Of a stretch of DNA of 64,000 bases, positions 26,629 to 44,261 are shown in pieces. The position numbers were made by a program, and so were the translations under genes. The DNA comes from Candidatus Omnitrophota bacterium (GTDB lineage Bacteria; Omnitrophota; Gorgyraeia; Zapsychrales; Zapsychraceae), in assembly GCA_015233115.1 (NCBI GenBank), contig JADFYJ010000001.1:67084-131083 (forward strand). The letters run 5' to 3'. The number at the start of each line of letters is the position of its first letter. The first letter of the stretch is position 1. The notes below the pieces were generated by a model. That model saw nothing but the letters and a program-made list of their open reading frames with translations. It was not told the origin of the DNA and did not search any database.

Positions 26629-26646
26629 CGGAGAGGTAGGGATTCG
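26629..26646 (-). other. 18-nt duplicate of the tRNA-Ser 3' end (T-arm/acceptor fragment)
   Basis: cggagaggtagggattcg is identical to 26735-26752 of the adjacent intact tRNA. Downstream it diverges and does not fold as a tRNA. Confidence 0.7.
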
Positions 26647-26734
26647 GCGCCCTTCGGGTCGGCCACTCGCCTGCTAAGCAAAGGCTCCTACTCGTCGCCT
26701 TTAGCATGCTCTCTTCGAATCCTATATGATAAAA

Positions 26735-26819
26735 CGGAGAGGTAGGGATTCGAACCCTAGAAAGCTTGCGCCTTAACGGTTTTCAAGACCGCCGCATTCA
26801 ACCGCTCTGCCACCTCTCC
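26735..26819 (-). tRNA. tRNA-Ser(TGA)
   Basis: GGAGAGG/CCTCTCC acceptor, CUUGAAA anticodon loop, long variable arm, GGTTCGAATCC T-arm and discriminator G. Confidence 0.85.
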
Positions 26820-26874
26820 GAAAAAAATTACGAAGTAATTTTTTGAGGATCTCGAACCTTTAGGTGAGAGATCT
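26814..26874 (-). repeat. Conserved ~60-nt element upstream of tRNA-Ser (copy 1 of 3), with a GATCTC/GAGATC hairpin
   Basis: agatctctcacctaaaggttcgagatcctcaaaaaattacttcgtaatttttttc on the - strand, running directly into the tRNA 5' end. Near-identical to 43841-43901. Confidence 0.8.
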
Positions 26875-27038
26875 CAATCGAAAGTATCTCAATTATCCAC
26901 ATATACGAATTTTTGTCAAATATTTAGAAAATTTTGAATCTATAAATTTAATTTCCTATTTTTCTCATTTAGGTTAAAATACTAGTTAATTTAACTGGTT
27001 TGATGTGTATTGATTTTAATATTTTACAAGGAGGGTTT

Positions 27039-27566
27039 ATGGAGGGGATGTGGAAAGAAATTTCAGTAGAAGCTGTCAAATTGGGATTGAATCTTTTGGC
27101 TGCCATTTTAATTTTTATTTTAGGGAAATGGGCGGCTAAAATTGTTTCAAAATTTTCTGAAGGGATGATGACAAAAGCCAAAGTTAATCATACGTTAGCA
27201 TCATTCACAAAAAATATTGTTTATTATGGTCTTTTGATATTTGTGGCCATTGCCGCTCTTAATAAAGTCGGGATAGAAACAAATTCATTTGTCGCTTTGG
27301 TCGGCGCTGCCGGTTTAGCCGTTGGTTTTGCTTTACAAGGATCGTTAGCCAATTTCGCGGCGGGGGTTATGATCATATTTTTTCAACCCTTTCAAGTAGG
27401 CGATACGATTGAAGCGGCAGGTGCTATCGGGAAAGTTGAAGAGATCCAAATATTTAATACCGTCTTGCTAGGTGAGGGAAATAAGTTGATTATTATTCCA
27501 AATGGCAAATTAACGGCGGATAAAATTGTAGTCTCATTACCGCAAATGACTAAACCAGAGATTTAA
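27039..27566 (+). CDS. MscS-family mechanosensitive channel, short form
   Basis: TM helices followed by the conserved pore-helix region GAAGLAVGFALQGSLANFAAGVMIIFF and the beta-domain PFQVGDTIEAAGAIGKVEEI. Start uncertain (the ORF opens with TTG at 27000). Confidence 0.7.
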   Translation: MEGMWKEISVEAVKLGLNLLAAILIFILGKWAAKIVSKFSEGMMTKAKVNHTLASFTKNIVYYGLLIFVAIAALNKVGIETNSFVALVGAAGLAVGFALQGSLANFAAGVMIIFFQPFQVGDTIEAAGAIGKVEEIQIFNTVLLGEGNKLIIIPNGKLTADKIVVSLPQMTKPEI

Positions 27567-27695
27567 TGAATTTAAAGGCAGGAGTGTCGCGGAAGTTGAT
27601 TTAAAAAATATTATATTTTTTAAAATGACTTGTCTAAATTTTAATATTTGAATACAATATAAAAAATAAACCTAAATCTATATTTGATTATCTTC

Positions 27696-29147
27696 ATGAC
27701 AAAAAAACCTTTTTCTATTTCTAAATCGATCGAAGATGAATCTTTGATCCGAAAATTTTCGGTCATATTTTTAGTCATTTCATTACTGCCGACTTTAGTC
27801 CTTTTTTATTTTTATACCCAGTTATCTGGGACCGGTTCCATTCAAGTATCCGTTAAAAGTTTAAATTTCGCTCTGACTTTTATTGTTCTCGGCGTTTTAT
27901 TGGGTTATGGCACCATGCGGAGGATTATTAAAAATTTAATTGATTTAGTTACGTCTAATAAAAAAATTTTAGAACGAATATTGAGTCCTCAAAAATTAAA
28001 GGAAATGGGCTCGTCTAAAAATGAAATATCCATACTCACGCATTCTTTTATTGCGATTACCAGTGAGTTAGAAGAAAATGTCCGCGAACTGCAGTTAGCT
28101 AAAAATACCATTTATGATGTGATGAATAAGGTCGCAAAAGGGATGGCGAATATGGATCAGATCGAGACTTTTTTAGATTTGATTCTGGAGACAGTCACAG
28201 AGGCGATGTCTGGTCAGAAGGGTTATATCGTCCGGCTTGAACTTGACAGTAGTTTTAAAATTCATTCCGCGCATGGTGTTGCCCAAGATATTAATATTGA
28301 CCAATTATTATCTCCCGATGATATCACTTTTATTCGGGAAGTTTTAAAATCAAAAAAAGTCGATATTCGCACTAAAGATGATGTGGACTGGGCACAAAAA
28401 TTTAAAAGCGGAATATTTGAATTGCCATTTATTTGCGCTCCTTTAGTTAAGAAGGATGATATTCTGGGAGTATTAATTGTTTCCGGCCGCAAGATGGCCA
28501 GGGATTTTGACGCTGACGAAGGAGATTTAATGGCTCATTTAGCCGCGCAAACGGCAATTGCGATAGAAAACTCAAGGTTAAATAAAGATATTGAACAAAC
28601 GTATTTTGAAACTATTTCCGCTTTAGCTTTGGCGGTTGATGCTAAGGATCAATATTCTCGTGGGCATTTGGATCGGGTCGCTGATTGCGCGGATAAGATT
28701 GGCGTGCGTATGGGGCTTGAAGATAATGAGTTAAAACTTTTGCGAGATGCGGCGCGATTACATGATTTAGGAAAAATTGGTATTCCGGATGATGTATTGG
28801 GCAAAGGATCTCAATTAAGTGTAGAAGAATGGGTTATGATGCGTAAACATCCGGAAATTGGCGAAAGCATTATAAAGCCGGTTAGAACGTTATTACCTTT
28901 GTGTGATTTGATCCGGCACCATCATGAGAAGCTGGATGGTTCTGGATATCCGGATGGATTGAAAGGTAATGATGTCACGCCATTAGTCCGCATCATGGCT
29001 GTGGCAGATATTTACGACGCAGTAACGACTGACAGATCTTACCGGAAAAAAATAACCCCGCATGAGGCTTGCAATATTTTACGCAGTATGGGCAGTCAGC
29101 TAGATCAGGATGTCGTAGACATTTTGGCCGAGATTGTCGAGGAATAA
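27696..29147 (+). CDS. HD-GYP domain c-di-GMP phosphodiesterase with an N-terminal TM and GAF-like sensor region
   Basis: RLHDLGKIGIPD and HHEKLDGSGYPDGLKG signatures. Two N-terminal hydrophobic helices. Start uncertain (TTG at 27684 or ATG at 27696). Confidence 0.8.
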   Translation: MTKKPFSISKSIEDESLIRKFSVIFLVISLLPTLVLFYFYTQLSGTGSIQVSVKSLNFALTFIVLGVLLGYGTMRRIIKNLIDLVTSNKKILERILSPQKLKEMGSSKNEISILTHSFIAITSELEENVRELQLAKNTIYDVMNKVAKGMANMDQIETFLDLILETVTEAMSGQKGYIVRLELDSSFKIHSAHGVAQDINIDQLLSPDDITFIREVLKSKKVDIRTKDDVDWAQKFKSGIFELPFICAPLVKKDDILGVLIVSGRKMARDFDADEGDLMAHLAAQTAIAIENSRLNKDIEQTYFETISALALAVDAKDQYSRGHLDRVADCADKIGVRMGLEDNELKLLRDAARLHDLGKIGIPDDVLGKGSQLSVEEWVMMRKHPEIGESIIKPVRTLLPLCDLIRHHHEKLDGSGYPDGLKGNDVTPLVRIMAVADIYDAVTTDRSYRKKITPHEACNILRSMGSQLDQDVVDILAEIVEE

Positions 29148-29179
29148 ACTATATTTGAAATTGTCATTATTTTGTATTA

Positions 29180-29272
29180 AGATCTCTCACCTGACGGTTC
29201 GAGATCCTCACCATTCTCGGATGGATGATAGAGGTTTAATTTATTGAAGTCGGAGAGGTGTCTGAGTGGTTG
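29180..29272 (+). repeat. Upstream tRNA-Ser element (copy 2) followed by a 21-nt tRNA-Ser 5' fragment
   Basis: agatctctcacctgacggttcgagatcctca at 29180-29210. ggagaggtgtctgagtggttg at 29252-29272 duplicates the first 21 nt of the tRNA at 29359. Confidence 0.75.
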
Positions 29273-29358
29273 GCCGTTGATAATTTTGATGCGGCACCAG
29301 GCAATAATTGAAACGGTTCGCACACGATTAGGTGTGAATAAATGCTAATATTTTTTTT

Positions 29359-29446
29359 GGAGAGGTGTCTGAGTGGTTGAAGGTGGCGGCCTCGAAAGTC
29401 GCTGTTTCGCATTGCGGAACCCAGGGTTCGAATCCCTGCCTCTCCG
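29359..29446 (+). tRNA. tRNA-Ser(CGA)
   Basis: GGAGAGG acceptor, anticodon loop CUCGAAA, long variable arm, CAGGGTTCGAATCCCTG T-arm, CCTCTCC and discriminator G. Confidence 0.85.
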
Positions 29447-29805
29447 TTTAAATTTAATCAGTCAAGGGATGAGAACCCAAAAGGGGTGTGTCAGGGGAAA
29501 GCCTGTTTCCCCTGTTCTCTAGAGGGGTGACAGCGAAGCGCCAGAGGGGGTATGGCCCCCTATGGAGAGGATGAGCGACTAGCGAAGACGAGTTCGTTTC
29601 CCTGCCTCTCCGTTTAAATTTAATCAGTCAAGGGATGAGAACCCAAAAGGGGTGTGTCAGGGGAAAGCCTGTTTCCCCTGTTCTCTAGAGGGGTGACAGC
29701 GAAGCGCCAGAGGGGGTATGGCCCCCTATGGAGAGGATGAGCGACTAGCGAAGACGAGTTCGTTTCCCTGCCTCTCCGTTTAAATTTAATCAGTCAAGGG
29801 ATGAA
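29447..29805 (+). repeat. Tandem array of 2.2 copies of a 166-bp structured unit, each ending in a tRNA 3'-end mimic
   Basis: Units 29447-29612 and 29613-29778 are identical by eye. A third partial unit follows. Internal hairpins are CAGGGGAAA..TTTCCCCTG and AGGGGGTATGGCCCCCT. Each unit ends GAGTTCGTTTCCCTGCCTCTCCG. Confidence 0.9.
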
Positions 29806-29891
29806 AATATTTATTTTTGTTAGTAATCATATAGATTAATGGGACAATAATTTCGTCTTATAAAATACCTGACATTAAACAGGAGGCAGAC

Positions 29892-30875
29892 ATGCGGCGA
29901 ATCAAAAGCCTGTACATCTTTTGTTTAATTATGTGTATATTTACGTTTGCGGGTTGTACAAATAAATCTGCTTCAAAAAAACCTATCAAAATCTCCCTGA
30001 ATGTTTGGCCTGGATATGCCATTGCTTACCTTGCCCAGGAGAAGGGTATTTTTAAAAAAAACAATGTTGCAGTAGAATTGGTTTTAAAGGAATCCACAGC
30101 TGAATCTCTCGCTTTGTTTACTGACGGAGATGCTGACGGATGTTTGGATATTTTTATGGACGCGATTATGATTAACGCGAAAGGGATTCCGGCTATAATT
30201 GTTTCCCTGATAGATTATTCTACAAGCGGTGATGTTATTATAGGCAGACCGGAAATCCAGTCGTTATCTGAGCTTAAAGGGAAAACTGTGAGTTTTGAAG
30301 GGGTGAATACTTTCTCGCATATATTTGTCGTAAACGCGCTTGAAAAAGCGGGTGTCGAGGAAGATGATCTTAAATTTGAAAATATTAATGCCCATGATGT
30401 CTTGTCCGCGTTGGATGAAAAAAGGATTGACGCGGGACACACCTGGGAGCCCACCAAATCACGCGCATTAAAAAAAGGATATAAGATATTAGCCAAAGCG
30501 GGCGATTATCCCGGCATGATCACCGATGTTTTACTTTTTACACCGACAATGATAAAGGAGCGGCCCGAGGATATTCAGGCTATTATAAAATCATTGTTTG
30601 AGGCTCAGGATTATTTAAATAGTCACAAAGAGGAATCAATTTTGATTATGGCTGACAAAATGAAAATGTCCAAGGAAGAAATGATCGCGGGATTGGAAGG
30701 ATTGTATCAGCTGGATTTAAAAGAAAATATGACTTTGTTAACAACAAAAATTACCACGTTGGATGCTGCGGGAAAATTGATCATGGAATTTTATCTTAAC
30801 CATGGACAGCTTTCGAAAATCATCGATATTAAGAATATTGTTGAGCGAAAATTTATCGTGGAGTTGTCAAAATGA
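29892..30875 (+). CDS. Lipoprotein substrate-binding protein (NMT1/SsuA-like), paralogue of 20508..21488
   Basis: Lipobox FAGC. Shares GKTV(S/A) and WP/W-GY blocks with the other binding protein. Its stop overlaps the downstream kinase start (ATGA). Confidence 0.6.
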   Translation: MRRIKSLYIFCLIMCIFTFAGCTNKSASKKPIKISLNVWPGYAIAYLAQEKGIFKKNNVAVELVLKESTAESLALFTDGDADGCLDIFMDAIMINAKGIPAIIVSLIDYSTSGDVIIGRPEIQSLSELKGKTVSFEGVNTFSHIFVVNALEKAGVEEDDLKFENINAHDVLSALDEKRIDAGHTWEPTKSRALKKGYKILAKAGDYPGMITDVLLFTPTMIKERPEDIQAIIKSLFEAQDYLNSHKEESILIMADKMKMSKEEMIAGLEGLYQLDLKENMTLLTTKITTLDAAGKLIMEFYLNHGQLSKIIDIKNIVERKFIVELSK

Positions 30876-33800
30876 AATTAATGTTGAAATTGGCATTCAC
30901 CATAATTGCCATATCTTTGGTTGCGCTGTGTCTGATCTTCTTTTTCACATGGACTGCCAATGTTAAAACCCTGGAGACGAAGACCAAAGATGATTTAGAG
31001 GAACTCGCGTTTCATGCTCTGGATAAAATAGACCGTAATTTTTTTGAACGCTCAGGCGATATCCGGATATTGGCAAATGATCCGGTTATCATTTCCCGGG
31101 ATTCGACTCCGCAACAGATTACTGAACGCCTTATTGCTTATCGGAATACGTATAAAATGTATGTTTCTTTAAGTTTTTTTGATTTGAACCGCGTTAGGAT
31201 TGCGGATACCTCCGGATTAAGACTGGGAATGCAGGATGTAAAAAATAAGTATTGGGATGATGTTTTGCAAGGCCAATTGAGCATAGCCTCGGATATTGAG
31301 GTTTCGGCATCGTTAGGTTCGAATGTTATATTTTTTGCTTCACCCGTCAGAGACAAGAACGGACAGCTTTTTGGGGTCGTAACAGCCAGGATGGCAGTGG
31401 ACAGATTGTATGAGATAGTAGGCGACATCAGTATTTCAAAGCAAGTCAAAGAAACCGTCCGTATAGATCTGGTTGATAAAGAAGGCAAACTTATTTATTC
31501 TAGCCACAACCGCAAAGGGATATTGCGAGATAATTTATCAGATTGGGGAGAGGATGTCAGGGATTTTCAAGGAAAAAATTCAGGCTTTAAATCGCCTCAT
31601 AAAAATCCTGGAGGCGAAGAATCTATTTCTGTTTTTTATCGTGAACAAGGATATCTTGATTTTCAAGGGAATGATTGGATATTAATAGTCCATATTCCTA
31701 CGCGAGTTGTTTTTGCTTCGGTGGTTGATTTAAGAAATAAATGGCTTCTCGTGATCATTCCTTTTGCCTTGCTGGCTGTCATCATTTCTATAATTTTGGC
31801 TATCCGATATTCCAAACCATTAACAAAATTGAGAGATGCTGCCAATGAAGTTGGCAGCGGGAATTTGAATGTCAGGGTTAATATAAAATCGTATGATGAG
31901 ATTGGAGATTTGGTTAATGTTTTTAACCGGATGGTCAGTAATCTTCAAGAGAACATGACTTCAATCGGAAGACTTGAACAAGAGATGGATCAGCGTAAGA
32001 AAATTGAAATCGCTCTCAAAGAAAGTGAAGAATGGTTTTCAACGACTTTAAAAAGTATTGGCGACGCGGTTATTGCTACGGACGAAAAAGGACGCGTAAA
32101 ATTTATTAATTATGTAGCAGAGCAATTGACGGGTTGGAAATATAACGAAGCTGTTGGGAAATCTTTGGACGAAATTTTTCATATTGTTAATGAACAAACA
32201 AGGGAAGTTGTTGAAAATCCGGTTGTGAAGGTACTCAGGGATGGCGGAGTGGTGGGTTTGGCTAACCACACGGTTTTAATTTCCAAAGAAGGGAAAGAGG
32301 TTCCGCTGGCTGACAGCGGTGCGCCTATTAGAAATACCGCGGGAGAAATTATTGGAGTTGTTCTCGTTTTTCAGGATGTTACTGAGCGTAAACAGGCCGA
32401 AGACGCGCTGCAGGAGAGCGAGCAACAATTTATGGATGTTTTGTATGCTTCCCAGGATGCCATTCTTTTGATTGATAGCGAGCAATTTGTTGATTGCAAT
32501 GAAGCTACCGCCCGAATGCTTGGATACGTCAACCGTGCTGAGCTTTTAATGACCCACCCATCGAAACTGTCCCCGCCTATACAGCCGGATGGACAAAATT
32601 CTTTTGGGAAAGCTAATGAGATGATGCGGATTGCTCATGAAAAAGGGTTTAATCGGTTTGAATGGGTACATCGAAAAGCAAATGGATCAGATTTTCCGGT
32701 TGAAGTGTCTCTGACTCCTGTCTTGGTTAAAGGAAAGAGTGTTCTTCATTGCGTATGGCGCGATATCTCTGAGCTGAAATTGGCAGAGACAGAATTGGCC
32801 CGGTACCAGGAGCATCTTGAAGATATCGTCAAGGAACGCACCGAACTTTTACAGGTGAGTGAGGAACGTTATCGTCATATCGCCTCAGCGATTACGGATT
32901 ACATTTATACAGTTCTTATTGAGAATGGAAGACCCGTACGGACGATTTATAATCCAGCATGTTTAGTGGTCACGGGATATTCTGCGGATGAATTCCGGGA
33001 AGATCCTATGCTTTGGATTAAGGTTGTCGTTGAAGAAGATCAGCCGCTAGTTGCAAAACAGATTGAAGAGATTTTAACTGGCAAAAGGGATGTTAAACCT
33101 ATCGAGCACCGTATGATCCATAAGGATGGCCGTATTTGCTGGGTGAAAAATACGATTGTTCTTCATCATGATACGCGCGGCTGCCTGGATTCTTACGATG
33201 GCCTTATTAGTGATATCACGGCTAGAAGAGAAGCAGAAAAAATTCTTGAGGATCAAAAAAGAGCGCTCGATGAACACGCGATTGTATCAAAGGCAGATGC
33301 TCGCGGGCACATCACTTATGTGAATGATAAGTTTTGTGAAATTTCACAATATTCCCGGGAGGAACTCATTGGAAAGGATCATCGGATTATCAATTCCGGA
33401 TATCACCCGAAAGTGTTTTTTGAGAATTTATGGCGCACAATTAAAAGCGGAAAAGTTTGGCAAGGCAAGATTCGTAACCGGGCCCAGGATGGAAGTTTTT
33501 ACTGGGTTCAATCAACGATAGTGCCGGTTTTGGATGAAGGAGGTGCCGTTAAAGAATATATTAGTGCCAGAACAGATATTACTCAGAGTGTAGAAAATGA
33601 GGAACGTCTGGAAAGGGCGATGCTGGTCAAGTCGAACTTTGTTTCTACAGTTTCTCATGAACTGCGTACTCCCTTGGCATCCATCAAATCATCTATTGAC
33701 ATTTTGGATACTGAGGCGCCTGGAAAACTTAATGAGGATCAGAAAATTTTTATTGTTCGGGTGAAATCTAATATTGATCGTCTAGCACGGCTTATTAATG

Positions 33801-34666
33801 ATGTGCTTGATCTTTCCAAATTGGAGTCAGGCAAGATGATCATTAATTTGGTACCTTTTCATCCCGAAGAAGTGGTCAGAGACGTTATTGAGATGCAGAA
33901 ATCGGTTATCAAAAATAAAGCAGTCACTTTAGAGATAAAAAGTGAAAAAGGTTTGCCAGCGCTTTCCGCGGATAAAGACCGGGTGATCCAGGTTCTTAAT
34001 AATTTGATTAGTAATGCGTTAAAATTTACTCATGAGGGGAACATAACTGTTTCTGTCTCTTGCTTTGATCGAAAATTGATGACATTTTGTGTTCGCGATA
34101 CGGGCATGGGAATCAAGGAAGAAGATTTGCCCAAGTTGTTTCAAAAATTCCAGCAAGTGGGGGGCGCGAGCCAGCAAGTGAGCGGGACAGGGCTGGGGCT
34201 GGCGATCTGTAAAGAAATCGTTGAGAGGCACAATGGCCGGATCTGGGTTGAATCACAGTTTGGAAAAGGGAGCGCGTTTTTCTTTACTGTGCCAGTAAAA
34301 CATGATAAACGTATTTTAGTCGTCGATGATGATCCAGTTATTTCTAAATTGATTAGAAGCCTTCTTGAGAAAACGGAGAAATATGAAATTGAATCGGTTA
34401 CTGATGGATTTTTAGCCGGTCAGAAATATTTGGAGTTTGATCCGCATATTATTATTCTCGATGTTGGATTGCCGGGATTGAATGGGCTTGAGGTTTGTGC
34501 CAGGATTAAGAAAGACCCTAACACCATGCATACGAAAATTATGATGTTTTCTAGTTTCACCGAAGATTTGGAAAAAAAGTGTTGGGATGTGGGCGCGGAT
34601 GACATTTTAAATAAACCTTTGGATCAAGAAGAATTGTTTTTAAAAATCAGCAAACTTATCGAATAA
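30872..34666 (+). CDS. Hybrid sensor histidine kinase (periplasmic Cache-like domain, HAMP, about four PAS/PAC, HisKA, HATPase, C-terminal REC)
   Basis: Classical H-box SHELRTPL. RDTGMGI and GTGLGLAICK. C-terminal receiver (ILVVDDD...ILDVGLPGLNG). Confidence 0.85.
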   Translation: MKLMLKLAFTIIAISLVALCLIFFFTWTANVKTLETKTKDDLEELAFHALDKIDRNFFERSGDIRILANDPVIISRDSTPQQITERLIAYRNTYKMYVSLSFFDLNRVRIADTSGLRLGMQDVKNKYWDDVLQGQLSIASDIEVSASLGSNVIFFASPVRDKNGQLFGVVTARMAVDRLYEIVGDISISKQVKETVRIDLVDKEGKLIYSSHNRKGILRDNLSDWGEDVRDFQGKNSGFKSPHKNPGGEESISVFYREQGYLDFQGNDWILIVHIPTRVVFASVVDLRNKWLLVIIPFALLAVIISIILAIRYSKPLTKLRDAANEVGSGNLNVRVNIKSYDEIGDLVNVFNRMVSNLQENMTSIGRLEQEMDQRKKIEIALKESEEWFSTTLKSIGDAVIATDEKGRVKFINYVAEQLTGWKYNEAVGKSLDEIFHIVNEQTREVVENPVVKVLRDGGVVGLANHTVLISKEGKEVPLADSGAPIRNTAGEIIGVVLVFQDVTERKQAEDALQESEQQFMDVLYASQDAILLIDSEQFVDCNEATARMLGYVNRAELLMTHPSKLSPPIQPDGQNSFGKANEMMRIAHEKGFNRFEWVHRKANGSDFPVEVSLTPVLVKGKSVLHCVWRDISELKLAETELARYQEHLEDIVKERTELLQVSEERYRHIASAITDYIYTVLIENGRPVRTIYNPACLVVTGYSADEFREDPMLWIKVVVEEDQPLVAKQIEEILTGKRDVKPIEHRMIHKDGRICWVKNTIVLHHDTRGCLDSYDGLISDITARREAEKILEDQKRALDEHAIVSKADARGHITYVNDKFCEISQYSREELIGKDHRIINSGYHPKVFFENLWRTIKSGKVWQGKIRNRAQDGSFYWVQSTIVPVLDEGGAVKEYISARTDITQSVENEERLERAMLVKSNFVSTVSHELRTPLASIKSSIDILDTEAPGKLNEDQKIFIVRVKSNIDRLARLINDVLDLSKLESGKMIINLVPFHPEEVVRDVIEMQKSVIKNKAVTLEIKSEKGLPALSADKDRVIQVLNNLISNALKFTHEGNITVSVSCFDRKLMTFCVRDTGMGIKEEDLPKLFQKFQQVGGASQQVSGTGLGLAICKEIVERHNGRIWVESQFGKGSAFFFTVPVKHDKRILVVDDDPVISKLIRSLLEKTEKYEIESVTDGFLAGQKYLEFDPHIIILDVGLPGLNGLEVCARIKKDPNTMHTKIMMFSSFTEDLEKKCWDVGADDILNKPLDQEELFLKISKLIE

Positions 34667-37094: not shown

Positions 37095-37952
37095 ATGAAT
37101 AAAATAGAGTCGGAACAATATAATAAAATTTGTGAAGCCAATTTGATTTTTTATAAGCAGACCGCTGATCAATATGAGTCCACTGAAACGTGTTTGGTAG
37201 ATAAAAAAGTTCAAGCTGGTTTGCAAAAGGATTTGGAAAATATTGTAGGATTTTTAAGGCAAAATAAAACCAAGGATGTTTATACGGTTTTAGACGCCTG
37301 CGGTGGATCTGGTAACGTGGCAACAAAATTGGTGCGGATGAAAAATCTCAATGTGACGTTGTGTGATCAGAGTCAGGAGTTAATTAATATTTTTTTGAAG
37401 AAAATAGCGGGACAAAATGTTATCTGTCAAGTCGTTAACACCGAAATTTCTACACATCTATCCCTTGCTCCGCAAAAATACGATTTAATTGTTTTTTCGT
37501 CAGCTCTTCATCATTTAGAGAATTATGAAGCGGTTTTAAAACTGGCAGCTGATTGTTTAGCAGACCACGGATTTATTTTTACTGCCTTTGATCCTATTCA
37601 GTGGAAAGGGCCTGCGCGTCTGATTATGCGTTTGGATTATTTAACGTTTAAACTTCTTCATCATTCCAAAGATGTTATTCCTGCGGTTCGTCGAAAGATT
37701 GGGCAGTGCTTAACCAAATTTTCAAAGCGATTGCCAGCCAAAGATCAAGTGAATTGGGGAGAAATAGCTGAATACCATGTGGATAAAGGGATCAATGATT
37801 TTGAATTGGTTCGTGCTATGGAGCAGAAACTATTAACAACGGTTTGGCATCGCCGGGAGACAAAGGCCAGGTATTTTATTTTTGAATTATTATTAAAATG
37901 CTGTGGGTGCAAGACGAATTTTACCCTGTTATTACAAAAAAAACCATGCTAA
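37095..37952 (+). CDS. Class I SAM-dependent methyltransferase
   Basis: Motif I VLDACGGSGNV and an acidic motif II, consistent with a Rossmann-type methyltransferase. Confidence 0.6.
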   Translation: MNKIESEQYNKICEANLIFYKQTADQYESTETCLVDKKVQAGLQKDLENIVGFLRQNKTKDVYTVLDACGGSGNVATKLVRMKNLNVTLCDQSQELINIFLKKIAGQNVICQVVNTEISTHLSLAPQKYDLIVFSSALHHLENYEAVLKLAADCLADHGFIFTAFDPIQWKGPARLIMRLDYLTFKLLHHSKDVIPAVRRKIGQCLTKFSKRLPAKDQVNWGEIAEYHVDKGINDFELVRAMEQKLLTTVWHRRETKARYFIFELLLKCCGCKTNFTLLLQKKPC

Positions 37953-38641
37953 AAATTTTAAGTCAGATTGAGGAAGGAATTCGGGCTTATCATATTCTTG
38001 AAGAAGGCGACCGTATTCTGGCCGCTATATCTGGAGGGAAAGACAGCTTAACCATGCTGCATTTTCTTAAGCAAATTCAGGCCTCTTCCAAAGTCCATTT
38101 TGATTTATCCGCAGTTCATATTAAGACGGATTTCCATTGCGGTTCCTGCGTTCACCGGGAAATGTTAAAAGATGTTTTTGAGCGTTTAGATGTTCCTTAT
38201 GTCATCAAAGATATTAAGGTTTTGGATGAACAAAAACAGACGAATTGCTTCTGGTGTTCCTGGTGCCGTAGAAAATGCTTATTTGAGACGGCGCGCGAGT
38301 TGGGGTGTAATAAGATTGCTTTTGGCCACCATAAAGATGATATCGTTGAGACTGTTCTTTTAAATTTATTTTTTAAAGGCGAGATTTCAACGATGACTCC
38401 GAATCAGGAAATGTTTAAAGGTGAGATTCGATTGATCCGGCCGCTATGCCTGGTAGATGAGGCCTTGATCAAACAATTTGCGCAGGAAAACAATTTTCCT
38501 CATCAAATGTGCCGCTGTCCATATGGTGCTGTTTCACAAAGAAAAACCATGAAATCGATTATTGATGATTTTTCTAATAATTTTCCAACGATTGATGTGC
38601 GAAATAATATTTTTAAAAGTTTATCAAATATTAAAATGTAG
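37946..38641 (+). CDS. PP-loop ATPase of the TtcA/TilS-like family (tRNA thiolation-type)
   Basis: SGGKDS PP-loop. Cys clusters CGSCVHR, CFWCSWCRRKC and CRCPYG. Start uncertain (ORF opens at 37898). Confidence 0.6.
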   Translation: MLKILSQIEEGIRAYHILEEGDRILAAISGGKDSLTMLHFLKQIQASSKVHFDLSAVHIKTDFHCGSCVHREMLKDVFERLDVPYVIKDIKVLDEQKQTNCFWCSWCRRKCLFETARELGCNKIAFGHHKDDIVETVLLNLFFKGEISTMTPNQEMFKGEIRLIRPLCLVDEALIKQFAQENNFPHQMCRCPYGAVSQRKTMKSIIDDFSNNFPTIDVRNNIFKSLSNIKM

Positions 38642-38700: not shown

Positions 38701-38704
38701 ATAA

Positions 38705-38982: not shown

Positions 38983-39537
38983 ATGAATTTCAAACTCGCG
39001 TTTTTGGTTTTACCAATAGTATTTTTAGGCGCCAGCATGAGTGATGCCAAAAAAAGTGTGAGTACAGTTTTGGATAATAAGAAGTCAATTTCGGTTAAAC
39101 GCAGTCAGGGTATTTGTTATTCAGAAAAAGCAGGCGTATCATTTAAATGCAAAAATTCTTGGAATTTAACGGTTATGGATGGTGCCAATTTGTTTAATAG
39201 TAAAGAAATGCCGCATTTAACAGTTTCCGTCTCAACTATGGTGGTTGATTTTACAGTTTTGGAAGAGTTGGACCATGGATTTTTACATTCCACCGGATTA
39301 TATAGTGATAATTTTCAAAGAGAACATGTTATGTGCGCAGGACGTCCGGCATTAAAAATTAAGGCTTACGCTAAAGATAATCCCCATATGCGTTATGTAG
39401 GGCTATTTTTCTTAAAAAATAAAGAATTGACCAGCATATTGTTTTCCGTATATCCAGAAAAAAAATATTGGGATCAATATCAATTTACAATTAAAGAGAT
39501 GATTGATAGTTTAAATTTTATCGGATCTAATAAATGA
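38983..39537 (+). CDS. Secreted hypothetical protein
   Basis: Signal peptide LAFLVLPIVFLGASMSDA. Confidence 0.4.
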   Translation: MNFKLAFLVLPIVFLGASMSDAKKSVSTVLDNKKSISVKRSQGICYSEKAGVSFKCKNSWNLTVMDGANLFNSKEMPHLTVSVSTMVVDFTVLEELDHGFLHSTGLYSDNFQREHVMCAGRPALKIKAYAKDNPHMRYVGLFFLKNKELTSILFSVYPEKKYWDQYQFTIKEMIDSLNFIGSNK

Positions 39538-40778
39538 AATTGCAATATCAGGTCATTATAGTGGGCGGTGGTCCAGCAGGAATGATGGCCGCTATTCGTG
39601 CGGCTGAACGAAATTTTTCAGTCCTATTAATCGAAAAAAATGATCAATTAGGTCGAAAACTTTTAATAACCGGTCATGGAAAATGTAATTTTACTCACAC
39701 GGGAGACCTTAATTATTTTTTATCTCAATATGTCCCCAACGGAAAAGTTTTGCGGGAGGCTTTAACAACATTTTCCAATGATGATTTAATCCAATATTTT
39801 AAAAAGTCTGATATTCCTTCCTATACCGATGAGGGCGGCCGTTTTTTTCCTAAGACTGACAGCGCGCAATCTTTACTCGACGTTTTGCGTCGGGCCATTC
39901 AAAAACTTAAAATAAAAGTCTTATTTTCAACTCAGGTTATTGAGTTGATGGTTAAAAATCAGAAAATTTATGGTGTTCGGTTAAATGAAGGGACTGAGAT
40001 TTTAGGCGATCATGTCGTTATTTCTACTGGCGGAAGATCATATCCTGCAACAGGATCTTCGGGAGATGGTTATCATCTGGCGCGTTCAATGGGACACACC
40101 GTTTCTGATGCGAAACCTGCTTTGGTTTCATTTAAATTGTTGGGGAATATTCCTGCGTTATTAGAAGGGATATCCCTTCCTGATATTGTTCTAAAATTCA
40201 GGATGGATAAAAAGTTTTGGCAAGAAAGGGGCGCGATCATTTTTACCGCTAAAGGTATATCCGGTCCTGCTGTTTTGAATCTTTCGCTTGTCACTACAGA
40301 TTATTTTCCTTCAGCTAATCCTATTTTTTTACACATGGATTTGGTTCCTAATTCAACGGAAGAACTTTTAAATGTTGAATTAACAAATATTTTTCTTACA
40401 CATGGCAAGGCACAAATAAAGACTGTTCTAGCCGAATATGTTCCTATGCGTTTGTGTGAAGAATTTTTGCGTTCTTTAAATATTGATCCTTTACAAAAAA
40501 CAGCCCAAGTGACAAAAAAACAAAAATTTTTGATTGTTGAAAAATTAAAAGATTGGCCATTTCAAATTTTAGCAATGGGGCCATGGACCAATGCCATGAT
40601 TACCAAGGGAGGAATTTTTGAAAAAGAAATTGATTTTAGAACCGGACAGTCAAAATTAGTAAATGGCCTTTACTTTGCAGGAGAAGTCATAGGTGTTTGC
40701 GGTAAAACCGGCGGGTTTAACCTCCAAATGGCCTTCTCCACAGGTTACCTGGTTGGAGAAAAAATTGTCTCTTTTTAA
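39534..40778 (+). CDS. HI0933-like/BaiN-family FAD-dependent oxidoreductase
   Basis: N-terminal dinucleotide fold VIIVGGGPAGMMAA with family-typical length. C-terminal GEVIGVCGKTGGFNLQ. Confidence 0.7.
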   Translation: MKLQYQVIIVGGGPAGMMAAIRAAERNFSVLLIEKNDQLGRKLLITGHGKCNFTHTGDLNYFLSQYVPNGKVLREALTTFSNDDLIQYFKKSDIPSYTDEGGRFFPKTDSAQSLLDVLRRAIQKLKIKVLFSTQVIELMVKNQKIYGVRLNEGTEILGDHVVISTGGRSYPATGSSGDGYHLARSMGHTVSDAKPALVSFKLLGNIPALLEGISLPDIVLKFRMDKKFWQERGAIIFTAKGISGPAVLNLSLVTTDYFPSANPIFLHMDLVPNSTEELLNVELTNIFLTHGKAQIKTVLAEYVPMRLCEEFLRSLNIDPLQKTAQVTKKQKFLIVEKLKDWPFQILAMGPWTNAMITKGGIFEKEIDFRTGQSKLVNGLYFAGEVIGVCGKTGGFNLQMAFSTGYLVGEKIVSF

Positions 40779-40844
40779 ACTCTTGCGGAATTTTGATATT
40801 TATTCTATACTCTATATGTGTAATAGGACTAAAGGAGTACATGA

Positions 40845-43739
40845 ATGGCTGATACGGACAATAGAAAAGATAAATATAATGCAATCGCTCCTATTCCCCA
40901 ACAAACTTCCAAAACTATCCGCTGTCTTTTAATCGAAGATAATCCTATTGATTGCCGGCTTATTCAAGGTCTCCTAAAAAATTCTGTCTCTAACATTGAC
41001 ATAGTGTTTGAAGCTAATTTACAGACGGCTATGCGATTAGTTTTAGAACAAAATTTTGATATTATTTTATTAGACCTTATGCTCCCGGATAGTAGCGGCA
41101 TTGATACATTGAAAAAGATTGTGACTTTGGTTCCGCGTATTCCGGTTATTGTGTTAACTGGTCTTAATGATGAGCATATCGCGTTAAAAGCAATGCGTTT
41201 TGGCGCGCAAGATTATATTGTTAAAGGACAGTTTACTGGACGTATTCTCGAGAGAGCGGTTCAATACGCCATTGAGCGCAAGAGAGCCCAAGGGAAGTTA
41301 TCTGATTTTCAAAATTTTGCTGAAGTCGCGGGATATGGCTTTAGTATGTCAGATGCGGAAGGCCGGATCTTGTATGCTAATCAGGCTTATTGCAAAATGC
41401 TTGAGGAAGATTTAGAAGAAGATTTGATCGGACGTAATTTTTTTGAGTATTATCCTGTTGAAAAGCAAGCCTATGTCAAAAATGTCCTCATGCCGCAAGC
41501 CTTCAAAACTGGTCAATGGGCGGGAGAAATTGATTTAAAAAGCCGCCGCGGCGTTTTGTTTTCCGTTATTCAAAATATTGTTGTTGTTAATGATCGCCAC
41601 GGTCAGCCTTTATATATCGGTAACGTCTGTATTGATATTTCTGAACGCAAAAAAATTGAACAAAAGCTTTTAACCAGCGAAAAAAAATATCGCGAATTAT
41701 ATGAGACCATGGTTTCCGCTATGGCCCAGCATAAAATTGTTTTGGATGCGACCGGTAACCCGGTTGATTACGTTTTTATTGATGTGAATCCGGCTTTTGA
41801 AAAAATGACCGGGTTAAAAAAAGAAGACATTGTTAATCGGTCAGTGACTGAAGTTTTTCCTAATATTAACAAATCATCTTTTGATTGGATTGGGGTTTAT
41901 GGAGAAGTCGCTTTAGGGGGAAATCCTCGTCAACTTGAACAATATTTTGAACCTTTCCAAAAATGGTTTTCCATTTTAGTATACAGCCCTCAAAAGGGAT
42001 CATTTATTACTTTATTTTCAGATATTACGGAACAAAAGCTCATACAAAAAGAGTTAAGGAATTCAGAACAACGATATCATGGCTTGTTTGAAGGCATCAT
42101 GGACGGGGTCATTATTATGGATGAAAACAGTTTGATTATTGAAGCTAATCCTGCGTATCTGAAAATGCTGGGCTATGAATTAAATGATATCCGAGGGAAA
42201 AGCGTTGAAGATTTAACTCCCGCTAAGTGGCATCAATGGGAAAGAGAAGAAGTTTTTAAAGATCAACTTTTGGATCGGGGTTTTTCAGAAGCTTATCAAA
42301 AAGAATATATACGTAAAGATGGCGCCATTATTCCGGTTGAGCTACGGGCTTATGCTATTCGTAATGAAGATAATGAAACAATAGGATTCTGGGCCATTGT
42401 CAGAGATTTGACGGATCAAAAGCGTTCTGACGAAAAAATGAAAAAATTATTTTTTTATGACCGGTTAACTGGTTTACCTAACCGTATGTTGGCGATAGAT
42501 CGTGTTTCGCAAGTTATTGCCCGTCTAAAACGCGATGTGGGTAAAATGGTGGCAGTATTAGTGATTGATCTTGATCAATTTAAATTAGTGAATGATACAT
42601 TAGGGCATTTTTGTGGTGACCAATTGTTAATTGAAGCATCACAGCGGTTACAAAGTATAGTCCGGGAAAGCGATACCGTCGCGCGTTTGGGCGGAGATGA
42701 ATTTTTATTGGTTTTACCGGAAATCGATGATGAAGAACATGCTGTTATTGTGGCACAAAAAATATTGGACGCTTTTGCTCAGCCTTTCGAATTGGAAAAA
42801 CGCGAAGTATTTGTGTCGGCCAGTATTGGAATAGCTGCTTATCCAAATGATGGCATAAATTCAACGGAATTGCTGAAGAACGCGGATGCGGCTATGTTCA
42901 AAGCCAAGGAGGACAGCCGTAACACATTTAAATTTTTTGCTCCACAAATGAATGAGAAAGCCAATGTCCGTCTGCGTATGGAAACTCGATTGCGTAGGGC
43001 CATAGATCAAAATAATTTAATCTTACACTATCAGCCTATTTATGATATTAATTCACGCAAATTAATCGGCGCGGAAGCATTGTTGCGTTGGAATGATCCG
43101 GAATTAGGACTAGTCATGCCAAATGATTTTATTCCTTTGGCTGAGGAAACTGGCTTAATTGTTCCGATTGGAGAGTGGGTTTTAAACCAGGCTTGTTTAC
43201 AAGCGAGAAAATGGAGTCAATGGTTTGAAATGCCTTTTAAAATTTCTGTCAATGTTTCTTATAGGCAATTCGTAGGCAGTGATTTCGCGAAAATTGTGGC
43301 TGATGCGTTAAAGCATTCTGGTTTGAATGCGAATCAGTTGGAATTAGAAATAACCGAACGTTTATTGCTCCAGAATCCTGAGGCAGTTGGAAAAATTTTG
43401 CATCGTATAGTTGATACGGGGGTGAATTTAGCTATCGATGATTTTGGTACGGGATATTCCAGTCTTCATTATTTGAAAAAATACCCATTTCATACCTTAA
43501 AAATTGATCGTTCATTTATCGTTGATATGAAAATTGATTCTTCTGATGTCGCGCTTCCATCCGCTATTATTGCCCTTGCGCATACGTTGAATTTAATGGT
43601 GGTGGGAGAAGGTGTTGAAACAGAGGAACAATTGGAGTTTTTACGTTTTCAGGGTTGTGATTGGGCACAAGGATTTTTCTTCGCCAAGCCGGTTTCTGAA
43701 AAAGAATTTGAAGCCATCGCCAAATTAAAACACTTCTAA
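40845..43739 (+). CDS. Response regulator with three PAS domains, GGDEF and EAL (c-di-GMP turnover)
   Basis: Receiver domain (LLIEDNP...LLDLMLPDSSG). GGDEF intact (RLGGDEFLL). EAL intact (GAEALLRW, DDFGTGYSS). Confidence 0.85.
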   Translation: MADTDNRKDKYNAIAPIPQQTSKTIRCLLIEDNPIDCRLIQGLLKNSVSNIDIVFEANLQTAMRLVLEQNFDIILLDLMLPDSSGIDTLKKIVTLVPRIPVIVLTGLNDEHIALKAMRFGAQDYIVKGQFTGRILERAVQYAIERKRAQGKLSDFQNFAEVAGYGFSMSDAEGRILYANQAYCKMLEEDLEEDLIGRNFFEYYPVEKQAYVKNVLMPQAFKTGQWAGEIDLKSRRGVLFSVIQNIVVVNDRHGQPLYIGNVCIDISERKKIEQKLLTSEKKYRELYETMVSAMAQHKIVLDATGNPVDYVFIDVNPAFEKMTGLKKEDIVNRSVTEVFPNINKSSFDWIGVYGEVALGGNPRQLEQYFEPFQKWFSILVYSPQKGSFITLFSDITEQKLIQKELRNSEQRYHGLFEGIMDGVIIMDENSLIIEANPAYLKMLGYELNDIRGKSVEDLTPAKWHQWEREEVFKDQLLDRGFSEAYQKEYIRKDGAIIPVELRAYAIRNEDNETIGFWAIVRDLTDQKRSDEKMKKLFFYDRLTGLPNRMLAIDRVSQVIARLKRDVGKMVAVLVIDLDQFKLVNDTLGHFCGDQLLIEASQRLQSIVRESDTVARLGGDEFLLVLPEIDDEEHAVIVAQKILDAFAQPFELEKREVFVSASIGIAAYPNDGINSTELLKNADAAMFKAKEDSRNTFKFFAPQMNEKANVRLRMETRLRRAIDQNNLILHYQPIYDINSRKLIGAEALLRWNDPELGLVMPNDFIPLAEETGLIVPIGEWVLNQACLQARKWSQWFEMPFKISVNVSYRQFVGSDFAKIVADALKHSGLNANQLELEITERLLLQNPEAVGKILHRIVDTGVNLAIDDFGTGYSSLHYLKKYPFHTLKIDRSFIVDMKIDSSDVALPSAIIALAHTLNLMVVGEGVETEEQLEFLRFQGCDWAQGFFFAKPVSEKEFEAIAKLKHF

Positions 43740-43840
43740 TTGTAGCTTGCCGTTAATCAAAATAATTTTTCATAGCAATATTTTTACTTTATGATATTCT
43801 AGTTTTCAATAAATTTGATTAAATAATTATAAGTAATTTA

Positions 43841-43901
43841 AGATCTCTCACCTAACGGTTCGATATCCTCAAAAAATTACTTCGTAATTTTTTTCGGAGA
43901 G
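43841..43901 (+). repeat. Upstream tRNA-Ser element (copy 3), ending in a tRNA 5'-like GGAGAGG fragment
   Basis: agatctctcacctaacggttcgatatcctcaaaaaattacttcgtaatttttttcggagag. This is the reverse complement of 26814-26874. Confidence 0.8.
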
Positions 43902-43967
43902 GGCCGTTAATCCGGATGTTGTTATAGAAACGGCACAAATCCCGGATATTTGATAAAAGTATTTTTA

Positions 43968-44052
43968 GGAGAGGTGGCAGAGCGGTTGAACGCGCACGCT
44001 TGGAAAGCGTGTGACTCGCAAGGGTCCCAGGGTTCGAATCCCTGCCTCTCCG
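43968..44052 (+). tRNA. tRNA-Ser(GGA)
   Basis: GGAGAGG acceptor. Anticodon stem CACGC/GCGTG with loop UUGGAAA. Long variable arm. CCAGGGTTCGAATCCCTGG T-arm and discriminator G. Confidence 0.85.
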
Positions 44053-44261
44053 TTTTAAATTTAATCAGCAAAGGGATGAGAACCCAAAAGGGGTTAGTAA
44101 GGGGAAAGCTTGTTTCCCCTTTTCTCTAGAGGGGTGACACCCCTGCCGTTTTGATTCGTAATCAAGAATACAAAACGAATCAGCAGGGGGCCAGAGGCTG
44201 AGTGACCCCCTATGGAGAGGATGAGCGAATAGCGAATCCGAGTTCGTTTCCCTGCTCTCCG
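44053..44261 (+). repeat. Single 209-bp variant of the tRNA-linked repeat unit (with a ~45-bp insertion), ending in a degenerate tRNA 3' mimic
   Basis: The opening (tttaaatttaatcag...aaagggatgagaacccaaaagggg) and closing (ctatggagaggatgagcga.tagcgaa..cgagttcgtttccctgctctccg) blocks match the 166-bp unit at 29447. Confidence 0.85.

Follow-up and report, generated by a model that had tools for sequence, protein, structure and literature searches.

Candidate RtT-like repeat units closing in copies of the tRNA 3′ end lie behind three tRNA-Ser genes of an Omnitrophica genome

To our knowledge, RtT (Rfam RF00391, gene rttR) has been an orphan of the Escherichia coli tyrT operon since about 1980, and we know of no accepted function for it; a loose link connects it to the stringent response. 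The 178-bp repeats of tyrT and tyrV follow a tRNA gene without a gap and in its orientation. Each closes with a duplicate of the tRNA 3′ end whose first base lies in the T-loop or immediately behind it. Egan and Landy reportedly counted 3.14 units in the E. coli array in 1978. Inspection of the E. coli K-12 region located 17-nt copies of TCCTTCCCCCACCACCA spaced 178 bp apart. According to the passages of PMC4986893 and PMC3318445 that cite Bosl and Kersten (1991), E. coli RtT RNA is released from the tRNA precursor during processing, and Northern signals have been obtained in Actinobacillus for RtT-family RNAs adjoining tRNA-Asn and tRNA-Lys genes (PMC4986893).

Here, we analysed a stretch of 64 kb (the window) from a Candidatus Omnitrophica genome assembled from a metagenome (MAG); exact-match look-ups of proteins of the window gave no record. 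ARAGORN and the Rfam tRNA model (47-59 bits) placed three tRNA-Ser genes at the coordinates given by an earlier note on this DNA, and ARAGORN called no further tRNA gene in the window. None of the three encodes CCA. That note had also described their acceptor and T-arm sequences as identical, which holds for the acceptor stem GGAGAGG/CCTCTCC and the T-loop, common to all three; the T-stem of the TGA tRNA (UAGGG/CCCUA) differs by one compensated base pair from that of the CGA and GGA tRNAs (CAGGG/CCCUG). What the note had missed is the main structure downstream of all three genes: its 18-nt 3′-end duplicate does exist (26629-26646), and so do 3′-end copies at each locus, as the ends of structured repeat units, probably of the RtT kind. 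The tRNA genes and the features behind them are as follows.

26735-26819, minus strand: tRNA-Ser(TGA) (ARAGORN; Rfam tRNA, 58.6 bits)
26629-26734, minus strand: type C unit of the TGA locus, single and short (105 nt) (sequence; HMM)
26586-26622, minus strand: strong intrinsic-terminator-like hairpin directly 3′ of the TGA unit, a 16-bp stem followed by a T run
29359-29446, plus strand: tRNA-Ser(CGA) (ARAGORN; Rfam tRNA)
29447-29612, plus strand: type B unit 1 of the CGA locus, 166 nt, ending in the pseudo tRNA end GAGTTCGTTTCCCTGCCTCTCCG (repeat comparison; HMM)
29613-29778, plus strand: type B unit 2 of the CGA locus, 99% identical to unit 1 (repeat comparison; HMM)
29779-29806, plus strand: partial third unit of the CGA locus, the first 28 nt of the unit (repeat comparison)
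43968-44052, plus strand: tRNA-Ser(GGA) (ARAGORN; Rfam tRNA)
44053-44261, plus strand: type B unit of the GGA locus, single, 209 nt, ending in the imperfect tRNA end CCCTGCTCTCCG (alignment; fold; HMM)

At all three loci, one or more units of 105-210 nt thus sit directly 3′ of the tRNA-Ser gene and on its strand, each closing in a 13-18-nt copy of the tRNA end that begins in or just after the T-loop. This copy measures 14 nt, and occurs twice, at the CGA locus; the GGA copy is imperfect (44250-44261; 13 nt with one deletion). TCCCTRCCTCTCCG was found six times, against 0.02 occurrences expected. The opening segment of the units derives from the reverse complement of the tRNA T-arm. For the TGA unit it is TAGGATTCGAA, the reverse complement of the T-loop and the 3′ strand of the T-stem; the type B units of the other two loci have GGGATGAGAACCC instead. 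In the CGA and GGA units this segment reads GGGATGAGAACCC-AAAA-GGGG, and its complementary strand is short and interrupted; the TGA unit runs from a linker through TAGGATTCGAA and hairpins that include CCCGAAGGG to the 18-nt copy of the tRNA 3′ end. The units form GC-rich islands (52-58% GC, versus 31-37% in the flanking intergenic DNA). No terminator was found between tRNA and unit at the window loci, and the strong terminator-like hairpin directly after the TGA unit implies that tRNA and unit would share one transcript.

Behind the CGA tRNA, the GC-rich 166-nt unit is repeated 2.17 times in tandem, the last copy being fractional, whereas the TGA and GGA loci hold single units. The GGA unit is homologous to the CGA unit (82% mean column identity in alignment A1) and carries an additional 43-nt hairpin. 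Assembly easily miscounts tandem repeats that are nearly identical, and with a MAG as source the two 99%-identical copies might reflect misassembly of a repeat. We regard this as most improbable, given the diverged copy at the GGA locus and given that E. coli and numerous independent assemblies also have these units in tandem; besides, such an artefact would alter the copy number, not the existence of the unit.

Scanning metagenomes with a pattern that specified spacing alone retrieved at least 120 loci. In at least 73 of them, one tRNA-Ser is followed by a non-tRNA unit that closes in a copy of the tRNA end; where ARAGORN called a tRNA at these loci it bore any of the four anticodons, and in three loci none was called. 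The shared suffix is 15-17 nt long in 58 of the 73, which places the unit boundary in the T-loop. Metagenomic units are often arranged in tandem, and many members carry a terminator-like hairpin after CCA. Most units of these loci align with the 178-bp RtT repeats of E. coli tyrT/tyrV, whose motif order, GGGGAAGGATGAGAAGC, GGTTCGAC, hairpins and GAGTAATCCTTCCCCCACCA, is that of the Ser-linked units. An HMM built from the alignment of 23 Ser-linked units with the tyrT/tyrV repeats (A2; type A/RtT) recognized 55 units in 45 loci. A second HMM, derived from four independent metagenomic units (type B), matched the CGA unit at E=1.5e-10 and the GGA unit at E=4.9e-5, and a third, from eight metagenomic short units, spanned the whole TGA unit at E=8.9e-4, compared with E=0.0098 for the type A/RtT HMM. 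Type B also occurs in Planctomycetota-like contigs, one of which encodes a GyrA 85% identical to proteins of Planctomycetota MAGs. This comparison shows at least three sequence types (A, B and C) with a common layout.

Other routes added no units. Synteny through gyrA-holA, followed to gather more type B members, led to three Planctomycetota loci lacking a tRNA there, and synteny through the NMT1-type neighbour led to relatives at 63-67% identity that likewise lack a tRNA at the corresponding place. In genome contigs, an 18-mer taken from the unit had 17 matches, all by chance and equal in number to the random expectation; a 21-mer from the unit had no match in metagenomes, and three viral pattern scans returned one chance match.

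One mark of classical RtT is a strand on the 5′ side able to pair with the 3′ copy, with GAUGAGAAC and a GAACCC/GGGUUC hairpin after it. The Rfam RtT model, whose gathering cut-off is 45 bits, gave the E. coli units 133-137 bits; for Ser-linked type A units it reached 25-37 bits along its full length (best E=7e-4), and the three window loci gave no match at E up to 10. The covariance model that RNAalifold produced for type A contained no base pairs; with two helices supplied by hand, this model from RtT-type units scored type B units no better than plain tRNAs. What ties type B to classical RtT is the shared layout and the first ~25 nt. On balance, we favour reading the units behind the three tRNA-Ser genes as RtT-like tRNA-linked repeat units.

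We also assessed structure across the types. Of the cells in the type B consensus fold, 88% are paired, whereas sliding the partners leaves 58% at best. Compensatory changes occur at nine pairs, and the score for covariation exceeded those of all 500 shuffles, in an alignment of six sequences that also supplied the structure. The GGA unit has a stable predicted fold (44053-44262, z=-4.98), and the CGA and TGA units taken alone have unremarkable ones (z=-1.3 and z=-0.7, respectively). The helix closing the 5′ and 3′ ends of the window units is short and interrupted (GGGA/UCCC plus CAG/CUG), and in these G-rich sequences a naive best-complement test of it did no better than shuffles. In the wider family, covariation links the 5′ strand to the T-stem base present in the 3′ copy (Fisher p=0.001).

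These features bear on whether the units could be functionless debris of local tRNA-Ser duplication, left by unequal crossing-over and decay, with 5′ fragments upstream and 3′ fragments downstream. Tandems of tRNA-Ser(CGA) and tRNA-Ser(GGA) at the same spacing are indeed common (47 of the 120 among the loci listed), the window units contain a GGAGAGG...CCTCTCC pair able to form an acceptor-like helix, and T-arm-like stretches occur upstream, both in the inserts described below (GGTTCG, AAATCCCGG) and in a 31-nt leader element (GGTTCGAGATCC). We nonetheless consider this origin unlikely, because neither ARAGORN nor the Rfam tRNA model detected a tRNA-like fold in units or inserts, the units have conserved non-tRNA motifs and an inverted T-arm segment common to distant bacteria, and the compensatory changes in the type B helices argue for selection on structure.

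Copies of a tRNA 3′ end beside a tRNA gene also invite a reading as integration sites, and the earlier note had raised an element that targets or carries tRNA-Ser genes. T-loop sites in tRNA genes are said to form a class of integrase sites of their own (Williams, NAR, 2002). Under such a scheme, a tRNA-Ser-targeting tyrosine integrase would have acted repeatedly at the T-loop, leaving att-site scars or miniature non-autonomous integrative elements; the direct repeats would be attL and attR cores, and the units element remnants or small trans-mobilised elements stacked by accretion. Like T-loop-class sites, the repeated block begins in the T-loop or immediately behind it and extends as far as the discriminator base; the tandem stacking resembles site-specific accretion; and a recombinase-like ORF is located ~0.4 kb away from one metagenome array (L097). 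However, Pfam and NCBIfam scans of 40 longer window ORFs revealed neither an integrase nor a transposase domain, window ORFs of at least 150 aa contained no tyrosine-recombinase motif, and this motif was present in 1-3 of the 73 unit loci versus 2-3 of 47 control loci, that is, without enrichment. Moreover, at 105-210 bp the units are too small for circular DNA intermediates, their internal motifs and helices are conserved across distant bacteria, and BLAST and scans of phage, plasmid and viral collections matched the tRNA itself and no unit sequence. The suggestion of such an element was therefore not borne out, and we judge the integrative origin very unlikely.

Other identities were considered and rejected. 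Rfam at gathering and permissive thresholds reported tRNA only at all three loci, with sX4, mascRNA and tmRNA_permuted below threshold. Neither the units nor the upstream inserts showed the cloverleaf or partial tRNA model match expected of a tRNA pseudogene: ARAGORN called the three genes only and Rfam tRNA matches fell on the genes alone, even at E up to 10. ARAGORN detected no standard or permuted tmRNA, and tmRNA_permuted scored 11 bits against a cut-off of 47 bits; GGUUCGAC resembles the tmRNA 5′ motif and comes with no T-arm, alanine identity or tag frame. A GAUGAG...GAA arrangement recalls the hammerhead core (CUGAUGA...GAAA), but in the window the C and U required before it are missing (AGGGAUGAG, AGGAUGAG), these two positions vary in the family as a whole, and the ten matches listed for each window locus (E up to 10) included no hammerhead family.

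Upstream of the genes, the earlier note had reported a near-identical element 5′ of each tRNA-Ser, a palindrome in two copies and truncated tRNA 5′ fragments at two loci. We mapped the following features.

26892-26919, minus strand: sigma-70-like promoter match TTGACA-16-GATAAT (11/12), 18 nt 5′ of the TGA leader hairpin (consensus match only)
26844-26874, minus strand: 31-nt leader hairpin element, TGA copy (pattern scan)
26821-26843, minus strand: A/U-rich palindrome AAAAAATTAC-TTCG-GTAATTTTTTT of the TGA locus, between leader hairpin and tRNA 5′ end (sequence, repeat comparison)
29180-29210, plus strand: 31-nt leader hairpin element, CGA copy (pattern scan; folded as a hairpin)
29252-29272, plus strand: 21-nt copy of the tRNA-Ser(CGA) 5′ end, 100% identical to 29359-29379
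29273-29358, plus strand: insert X of the CGA locus, 86 nt, between 5′ fragment and tRNA; begins GCCGTTGAT and includes GAAACGGTTCG
43841-43871, plus strand: 31-nt leader hairpin element, GGA copy (pattern scan; one stem pair broken)
43872-43894, plus strand: A/U-rich palindrome, second copy, GGA locus (sequence, repeat comparison)
43896-43902, plus strand: 7-nt copy of the tRNA 5′ end, GGA locus (GGAGAGG; sequence)
43903-43967, plus strand: insert X of the GGA locus, 65 nt; begins GCCGTTAAT and includes GAAACGGC and AAATCCCGG

All three observations stood. The 31-nt hairpin element is present exactly three times in the window, against zero expected by chance; the palindrome AAAAAATTAC-TTCG-GTAATTTTTT follows it at the TGA and GGA loci; and the 5′ fragments amount to 21 nt at the CGA locus and to GGAGAGG alone at the GGA locus. 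The leader element, invariant at 28 of 31 positions, shows higher conservation than the tRNAs. Of the three positions that vary, two lie in the predicted tetraloop and the third (K) disrupts one stem pair in the GGA copy; the T-arm-like GGTTCGAGATCC lies inside the element (p=0.01). The CGA and GGA loci have in common the leader hairpin, a tRNA 5′ fragment, an insert starting GCCGTTRAT and a homologous downstream unit. Comparison of the two inserts with each other, with the tRNAs and with the units gave no significant match, nor did the CGA insert resemble tRNA, the downstream unit or the GGA insert to a significant degree. The whole GGA leader is predicted to fold with z=-2.7.

Over 65 nt the leaders of the TGA and GGA loci reach 95% identity, against 79% for the tRNAs themselves, which indicates segmental duplication or gene conversion between the loci. 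The repeated segmental duplication of a cassette proposed earlier is supported in part, by these duplicated flanks. We infer that the upstream features, namely the hairpin with its T-arm-like stretch, the A/U-rich palindrome, and the tRNA 5′ fragments and inserts, are a common leader, probably transcribed, together with remnants left by the same local duplications. The 31-nt element might instead be a standard promoter-proximal leader or operator of tRNA genes in the source genome, specific neither to serine nor to the cassette. Consistently with this, sigma-70-like promoter matches lie 11-40 nt 5′ of it at two loci (TGA and GGA), and at the third (CGA) it overlaps a weaker -10 match; the element is more strongly conserved than the tRNAs and, as a DNA palindrome, could bind a dimeric protein. 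Yet all three visible tRNAs are serine tRNAs, and the element was seen at no other tRNA; its relaxed 27-nt core (GATCTCTCACCTNNNGGTTCGANATCC) had no match in 185,579 species genomes, a set without the source MAG, and a shorter 24-nt core had none in viral contigs. A generic leader is a possibility to be taken seriously, though we lean away from it.

By analogy with the E. coli tyrT operon, the RtT-like units would be co-transcribed with their tRNA. The terminal copy of the tRNA end may then pair with the antisense-like 5′ segment and offer a second cutting site to the tRNA 3′-maturation enzymes, so that tRNA processing would set free a discrete structured RNA as a by-product. Repetition of the tRNA ends could also provide short homologies for unequal crossing-over, generating tandem arrays such as the 2.17 copies behind the CGA tRNA. 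This mechanism is an analogy only. Going further, RtT-like units might constitute a cross-phyla family of RNAs, each tailored to and co-evolving with one tRNA through its 3′-end copy and antisense segment, and maybe acting as sensors, decoys or regulators of its maturation or charging, for serine perhaps in connection with starvation and the stringent response; type B would then be an undescribed class of the PVC group (Planctomycetota, Omnitrophica and relatives), and the 31-nt hairpin with the terminator-like palindrome a matching attenuator. We put this forward as a speculation that is unlikely to hold.

The RtT-like design comes back behind serine tRNAs with each of the four anticodons and in widely differing bacteria, with an antisense-like strand that tracks the tRNA's own sequence. 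This turns a single-species oddity into a comparative problem in which conserved and variable parts are now separable, and Xanthomonas sX4, Aggregatibacter sRNA22 and E. coli rttR emerge as candidate systems for experiments. It also carries a warning for annotation, as copies of tRNA 3′ ends beside tRNA genes are usually taken for island boundaries or att sites and are not so read here.

Among described small RNAs, the consensus of sX4 (RF02223, Xanthomonas) comprises tRNA-Ser, CCA, a hairpin and GGGGGGUGAGA, that is, tRNA-Ser plus the start of a unit, and AaHKsRNA22 (RF02902, Aggregatibacter) matches the hairpin core of the units in one metagenome locus (L055) at 44.6 and 41 bits (cut-off 39.8). 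Each of the two families seems to represent a piece of a tRNA-Ser-linked unit of this kind, and RNAs from such units have already been seen experimentally under these other names. Window units reached 20-32 bits with sX4, mostly from the tRNA part, and the ten matches listed for each window locus (E up to 10) did not include AaHKsRNA22. Neither family has apparently been described as repeats that copy a tRNA end. In the tRNA punctuation principle and in the mascRNA of MALAT1, a tRNA-derived end is proposed to recruit maturation nucleases and so to give the flanking RNA defined ends, as the terminal copies might do here; the parallel is confined to mechanism, as the window units lack a full cloverleaf, and the Rfam mascRNA match (21.6 bits) falls on the real tRNA. 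With T-loop-class att sites and cis-mobilisable elements the units share direct repeats of the T-loop-to-3′-end block and tandem stacking by a tRNA. Unlike those elements, they come with no recombinase among the window ORFs scanned, measure 105-210 bp and conserve RNA-like helices, and their E. coli homologues are processed transcripts.

The closest counterpart is RtT. In both systems, the units follow a tRNA gene directly on its strand and close in a tRNA 3′-end copy, and both form tandem arrays with a partial last unit (reportedly 3.14 units in E. coli, 2.17 at the CGA locus). The 5′ part of RtT has a G-rich strand complementary to that copy, with GATGAGAA after it, for which the opening segments of the window units may be the counterpart. 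They differ in the cognate tRNA (serine in the window, tyrosine for E. coli RtT), in the host (an Omnitrophica MAG versus a gammaproteobacterium) and in the central part of the CGA and GGA units, which is of another sequence type; unlike in the RtT system, the tRNA genes of the window come without encoded CCA and without a Tpr-like small ORF. The window units would add a variant to a design known from E. coli.

ARAGORN and Rfam agreed on the three tRNA-Ser genes proposed earlier, here named by anticodon, and there is no further tRNA in the window:

26735-26819, minus strand, tRNA-Ser(TGA)
29359-29446, plus strand, tRNA-Ser(CGA)
43968-44052, plus strand, tRNA-Ser(GGA)

The gene neighbourhood comprises signalling genes, a hydrogenase, RecQ and Rex, and almost all ORFs of at least 150 aa, over the full 64 kb, lie on the plus strand, tRNA-Ser(TGA) being among the few minus-strand features. 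Two paralogous gene pairs occupy positions 20508-24714 and 29892-34666; in each, the gene for an NMT1-type periplasmic binding protein precedes that for a very large hybrid histidine kinase of dCache/HAMP/PAS architecture. The latter pair begins immediately past the repeat units of the CGA locus, and, after one identical database entry, the next-best relatives of the 29892-30875 protein are just 70% identical. A PP-loop ATPase family ORF (37898-38641; TilS/TtcA type, tRNA-modifying enzymes) lies between the CGA and GGA loci. At 8044-12238, genes for a ParA-like ATPase and a coiled-coil protein stand in a row with two ORFs weakly matching MamK/actin-like proteins, and may represent a cytoskeletal or partition module.

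Within the near-identical ~60-nt element that the earlier note placed 5' of each gene, on the gene's strand, the 31-nt sequence AGATCTCTCACCTRAMGGTTCGAKATCCTCA is present in exactly three copies, one per gene, with none expected by chance. This 31-nt element folds as AGAUCUC-UC-ACC-[URAM]-GGU-UC-GAGAUC, with two of its three variable positions in the tetraloop; the third, in the GGA copy, disrupts a single stem pair. It includes GGTTCGAGATCC, a T-arm carrying an extra base (p=0.01). The palindrome reported in two copies (A/U-rich, centred on TTCG, with a T run) indeed follows directly at the TGA and GGA loci, whose 65-nt leaders are 95% identical as against just 79% for their tRNAs. Promoter-like matches at these two loci place the element within the predicted transcript; at the CGA locus it overlaps a weak -10 match. 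The tRNA 5' fragments (21 nt at CGA, 7 nt at GGA) and the 18-nt 3' copy at 26629 were also found. Past the fragments, the CGA and GGA inserts have in common only GCCGTTRAT...GAAACGG, with no significant similarity outside this motif. Collectively, the upstream features weakly support a shared leader, its likeness maintained by gene conversion or selection, accompanied by duplication debris.

The dominant structure, absent from the earlier note, sits 3' of the tRNA-Ser genes. Tandem expansion is evident behind the CGA tRNA, where two 166-nt units, 99% alike and each terminating in GAGTTCGTTTCCCTGCCTCTCCG, are joined by a third that stops after its first 28 nt. A single homologous unit of 209 nt follows the GGA tRNA, bearing an additional 43-nt hairpin at the site of a mini-hairpin in the CGA unit, and the TGA tRNA precedes a distinct 105-nt unit that terminates in CGAATCCCTACCTCTCCG and then a strong terminator. 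The units are co-oriented with their tRNA, with no terminator between the two, and form GC-rich islands (52-58% GC vs 31-37% in adjacent intergenic DNA). Past a short A/T linker, each starts with a segment that is nearly the T-arm's reverse complement (GGGATGAGAACCC or TAGGATTCGAA vs GGGTTCGAATCCC), and the units combine an antisense-like 5' strand with a copied tRNA end. Together with the tRNA end and the inverted T-arm segment, a short A/T palindrome (TTAAATTTAA) creates a long, imperfect inverted repeat at 29437-29467 and 44043-44074, its centre lying immediately past the tRNA; in GC-rich relatives, this position is held by a terminator hairpin that opens with an encoded CCA.

Searches of genome, viral and metagenome collections for exact stretches of the units or leader gave no real match. 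A layout pattern requiring nothing beyond the tRNA-Ser 3' end and, 137-167 nt further on, a second TCCNNNCCTCTCCG returned at least 120 loci. Among the matches listed, 47 of 120 were ordinary tandem tRNA-Ser genes and 73 held one tRNA-Ser followed by a non-tRNA unit closing in a copy of the tRNA end; ARAGORN called a tRNA in 70 of these 73, all four anticodons being present, and the shared suffix measured 15-17 nt in 58 of the 73, which locates the unit boundary in the T-loop. Many metagenome units are followed by CCA and then another unit. Most read (GGAGA)GGGAGGGAT-GAGAACCC-NNN-GGGTTCGAC, then 2-4 GC-rich hairpins, then CGARYA-ATCC, motifs not imposed by the pattern. Two loci (L077 and L112) carry very short tandem units of ~80-87 nt that look like a minimal form of this layout, each combining one hairpin with 17-20 nt copied from the 3' end of tRNA-Ser. 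At L097, a tyrosine-recombinase-like ORF (HSLRHSY motif) lies ~0.4 kb from the array, the sole clear case in the 73 unit loci among the matches listed.

A T-loop boundary would fit scars left by integrases at tRNA-Ser, but we regard this origin as very improbable given the lack of recombinases in the window ORFs scanned, the ill-fitting unit size and the conserved unit interior. Indeed, none of the 40 window ORFs scanned contains an integrase or transposase domain, nor does any window ORF of at least 150 aa show a tyrosine-recombinase motif, which speaks against the previously suggested element targeting or carrying tRNA-Ser genes. That the units are pure tRNA pseudogene debris is likewise improbable, since they lack any tRNA model match whatsoever and conserve non-tRNA motifs. 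Resemblances to hammerhead and tmRNA were examined and dismissed.

A weak match of the Rfam RtT model (RF00391; 45-bit gathering score) to one Ser-linked metagenome unit led us to E. coli tyrT/tyrV, whose 178-bp repeats read GGGGAAGGATGAGAAGCTTCGACCAAGGTTCGAC...CCCGAAGGGCGAAGCGCGCAGCGCTGAGTAATCCTTCCCCCACCACCA. Motif order is the same, but the 5' strand and 3' copy both fit tRNA-Tyr in E. coli and tRNA-Ser in the Ser-linked units. In a joint alignment, the E. coli units line up column for column with 23 Ser-linked units, and an HMM built on it found 55 units in 45 loci. The 5'-strand base changes from unit to unit in step with the base that varies in the T-stem of the 3' copy (Fisher p=0.001). 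The RtT model yields 133-137 bits for the E. coli units and 25-37 bits (full model; best E=7e-4) for the Ser-linked ones, whose scores thus lie below the gathering score. The E. coli K-12 tyrT-tyrV spacer (1764-1895 of locus L149) is itself a complete RtT unit (132.9 bits); this strain therefore has four units, not just three 3' of tyrV.

Besides RtT-type units (type A), the window CGA and GGA units represent a second sequence type (B) common to four metagenome loci (L108, L110, L147 and L132), ordered as GGGATTCGAACCC-AAA-GGGGT, a GGGGAAA/UUUCCCC hairpin, GGGGTGACAG, CCAGAGGGG..CCCCTATGG, a hairpin and a tRNA-like end. An HMM from these four loci alone recovered the window units (E=1.5e-10, twice, and 4.9e-5). 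The L110 GyrA is 85% identical to Planctomycetota MAG proteins, so two or more phyla of the PVC group, which unites Planctomycetota, Omnitrophica and their relatives, carry type B. In its six-sequence RNAalifold consensus, 88% of cells are paired vs at most 58% with partners slid; compensatory changes affect nine pairs, and the covariation score exceeds all 500 shuffles, albeit with only six sequences and a structure taken from the very alignment that was scored. The helices of the units are conserved. The TGA unit matches a short type C (GGATTCGAA, hairpins, 18-nt copy), with E=8.9e-4 for an HMM from eight type C units and E=0.0098 for the type A HMM. The RtT model matched none of the window units, and a type A covariance model could not tell type B apart from plain tRNAs; on these grounds we class the window units by their architecture as RtT-like but leave them outside RF00391.

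By analogy with E. coli, the unit would be co-transcribed with the tRNA, tRNA-maturation nucleases could release it by cutting at the real and copied ends, and unequal crossing-over between copies might enlarge the array. Other named sRNA families touch these units as well. The sX4 (RF02223) consensus consists of tRNA-Ser and the beginning of a unit, and AaHKsRNA22 (RF02902) scores over its cut-off on metagenome locus L055; both families, though named separately, look like fragments of a single family of tRNA-linked units. Matches to either or both were seen on L055, L070, L093, L102 and L106, and weaker ones to Atu_C8, BjrC68 and MH_s15 on L055 hint at further such cases. In Actinobacillus, RtT-family RNAs also adjoin tRNA-Asn and tRNA-Lys genes and give Northern blot signals (PMC4986893). 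The function of E. coli RtT was termed unknown as late as a 2024 preprint (10.1101/2024.07.17.603846). The finding is real and wider in extent than first described, and the window units are probably a serine-tRNA, PVC-group version of the known yet unexplained RtT kind of element.
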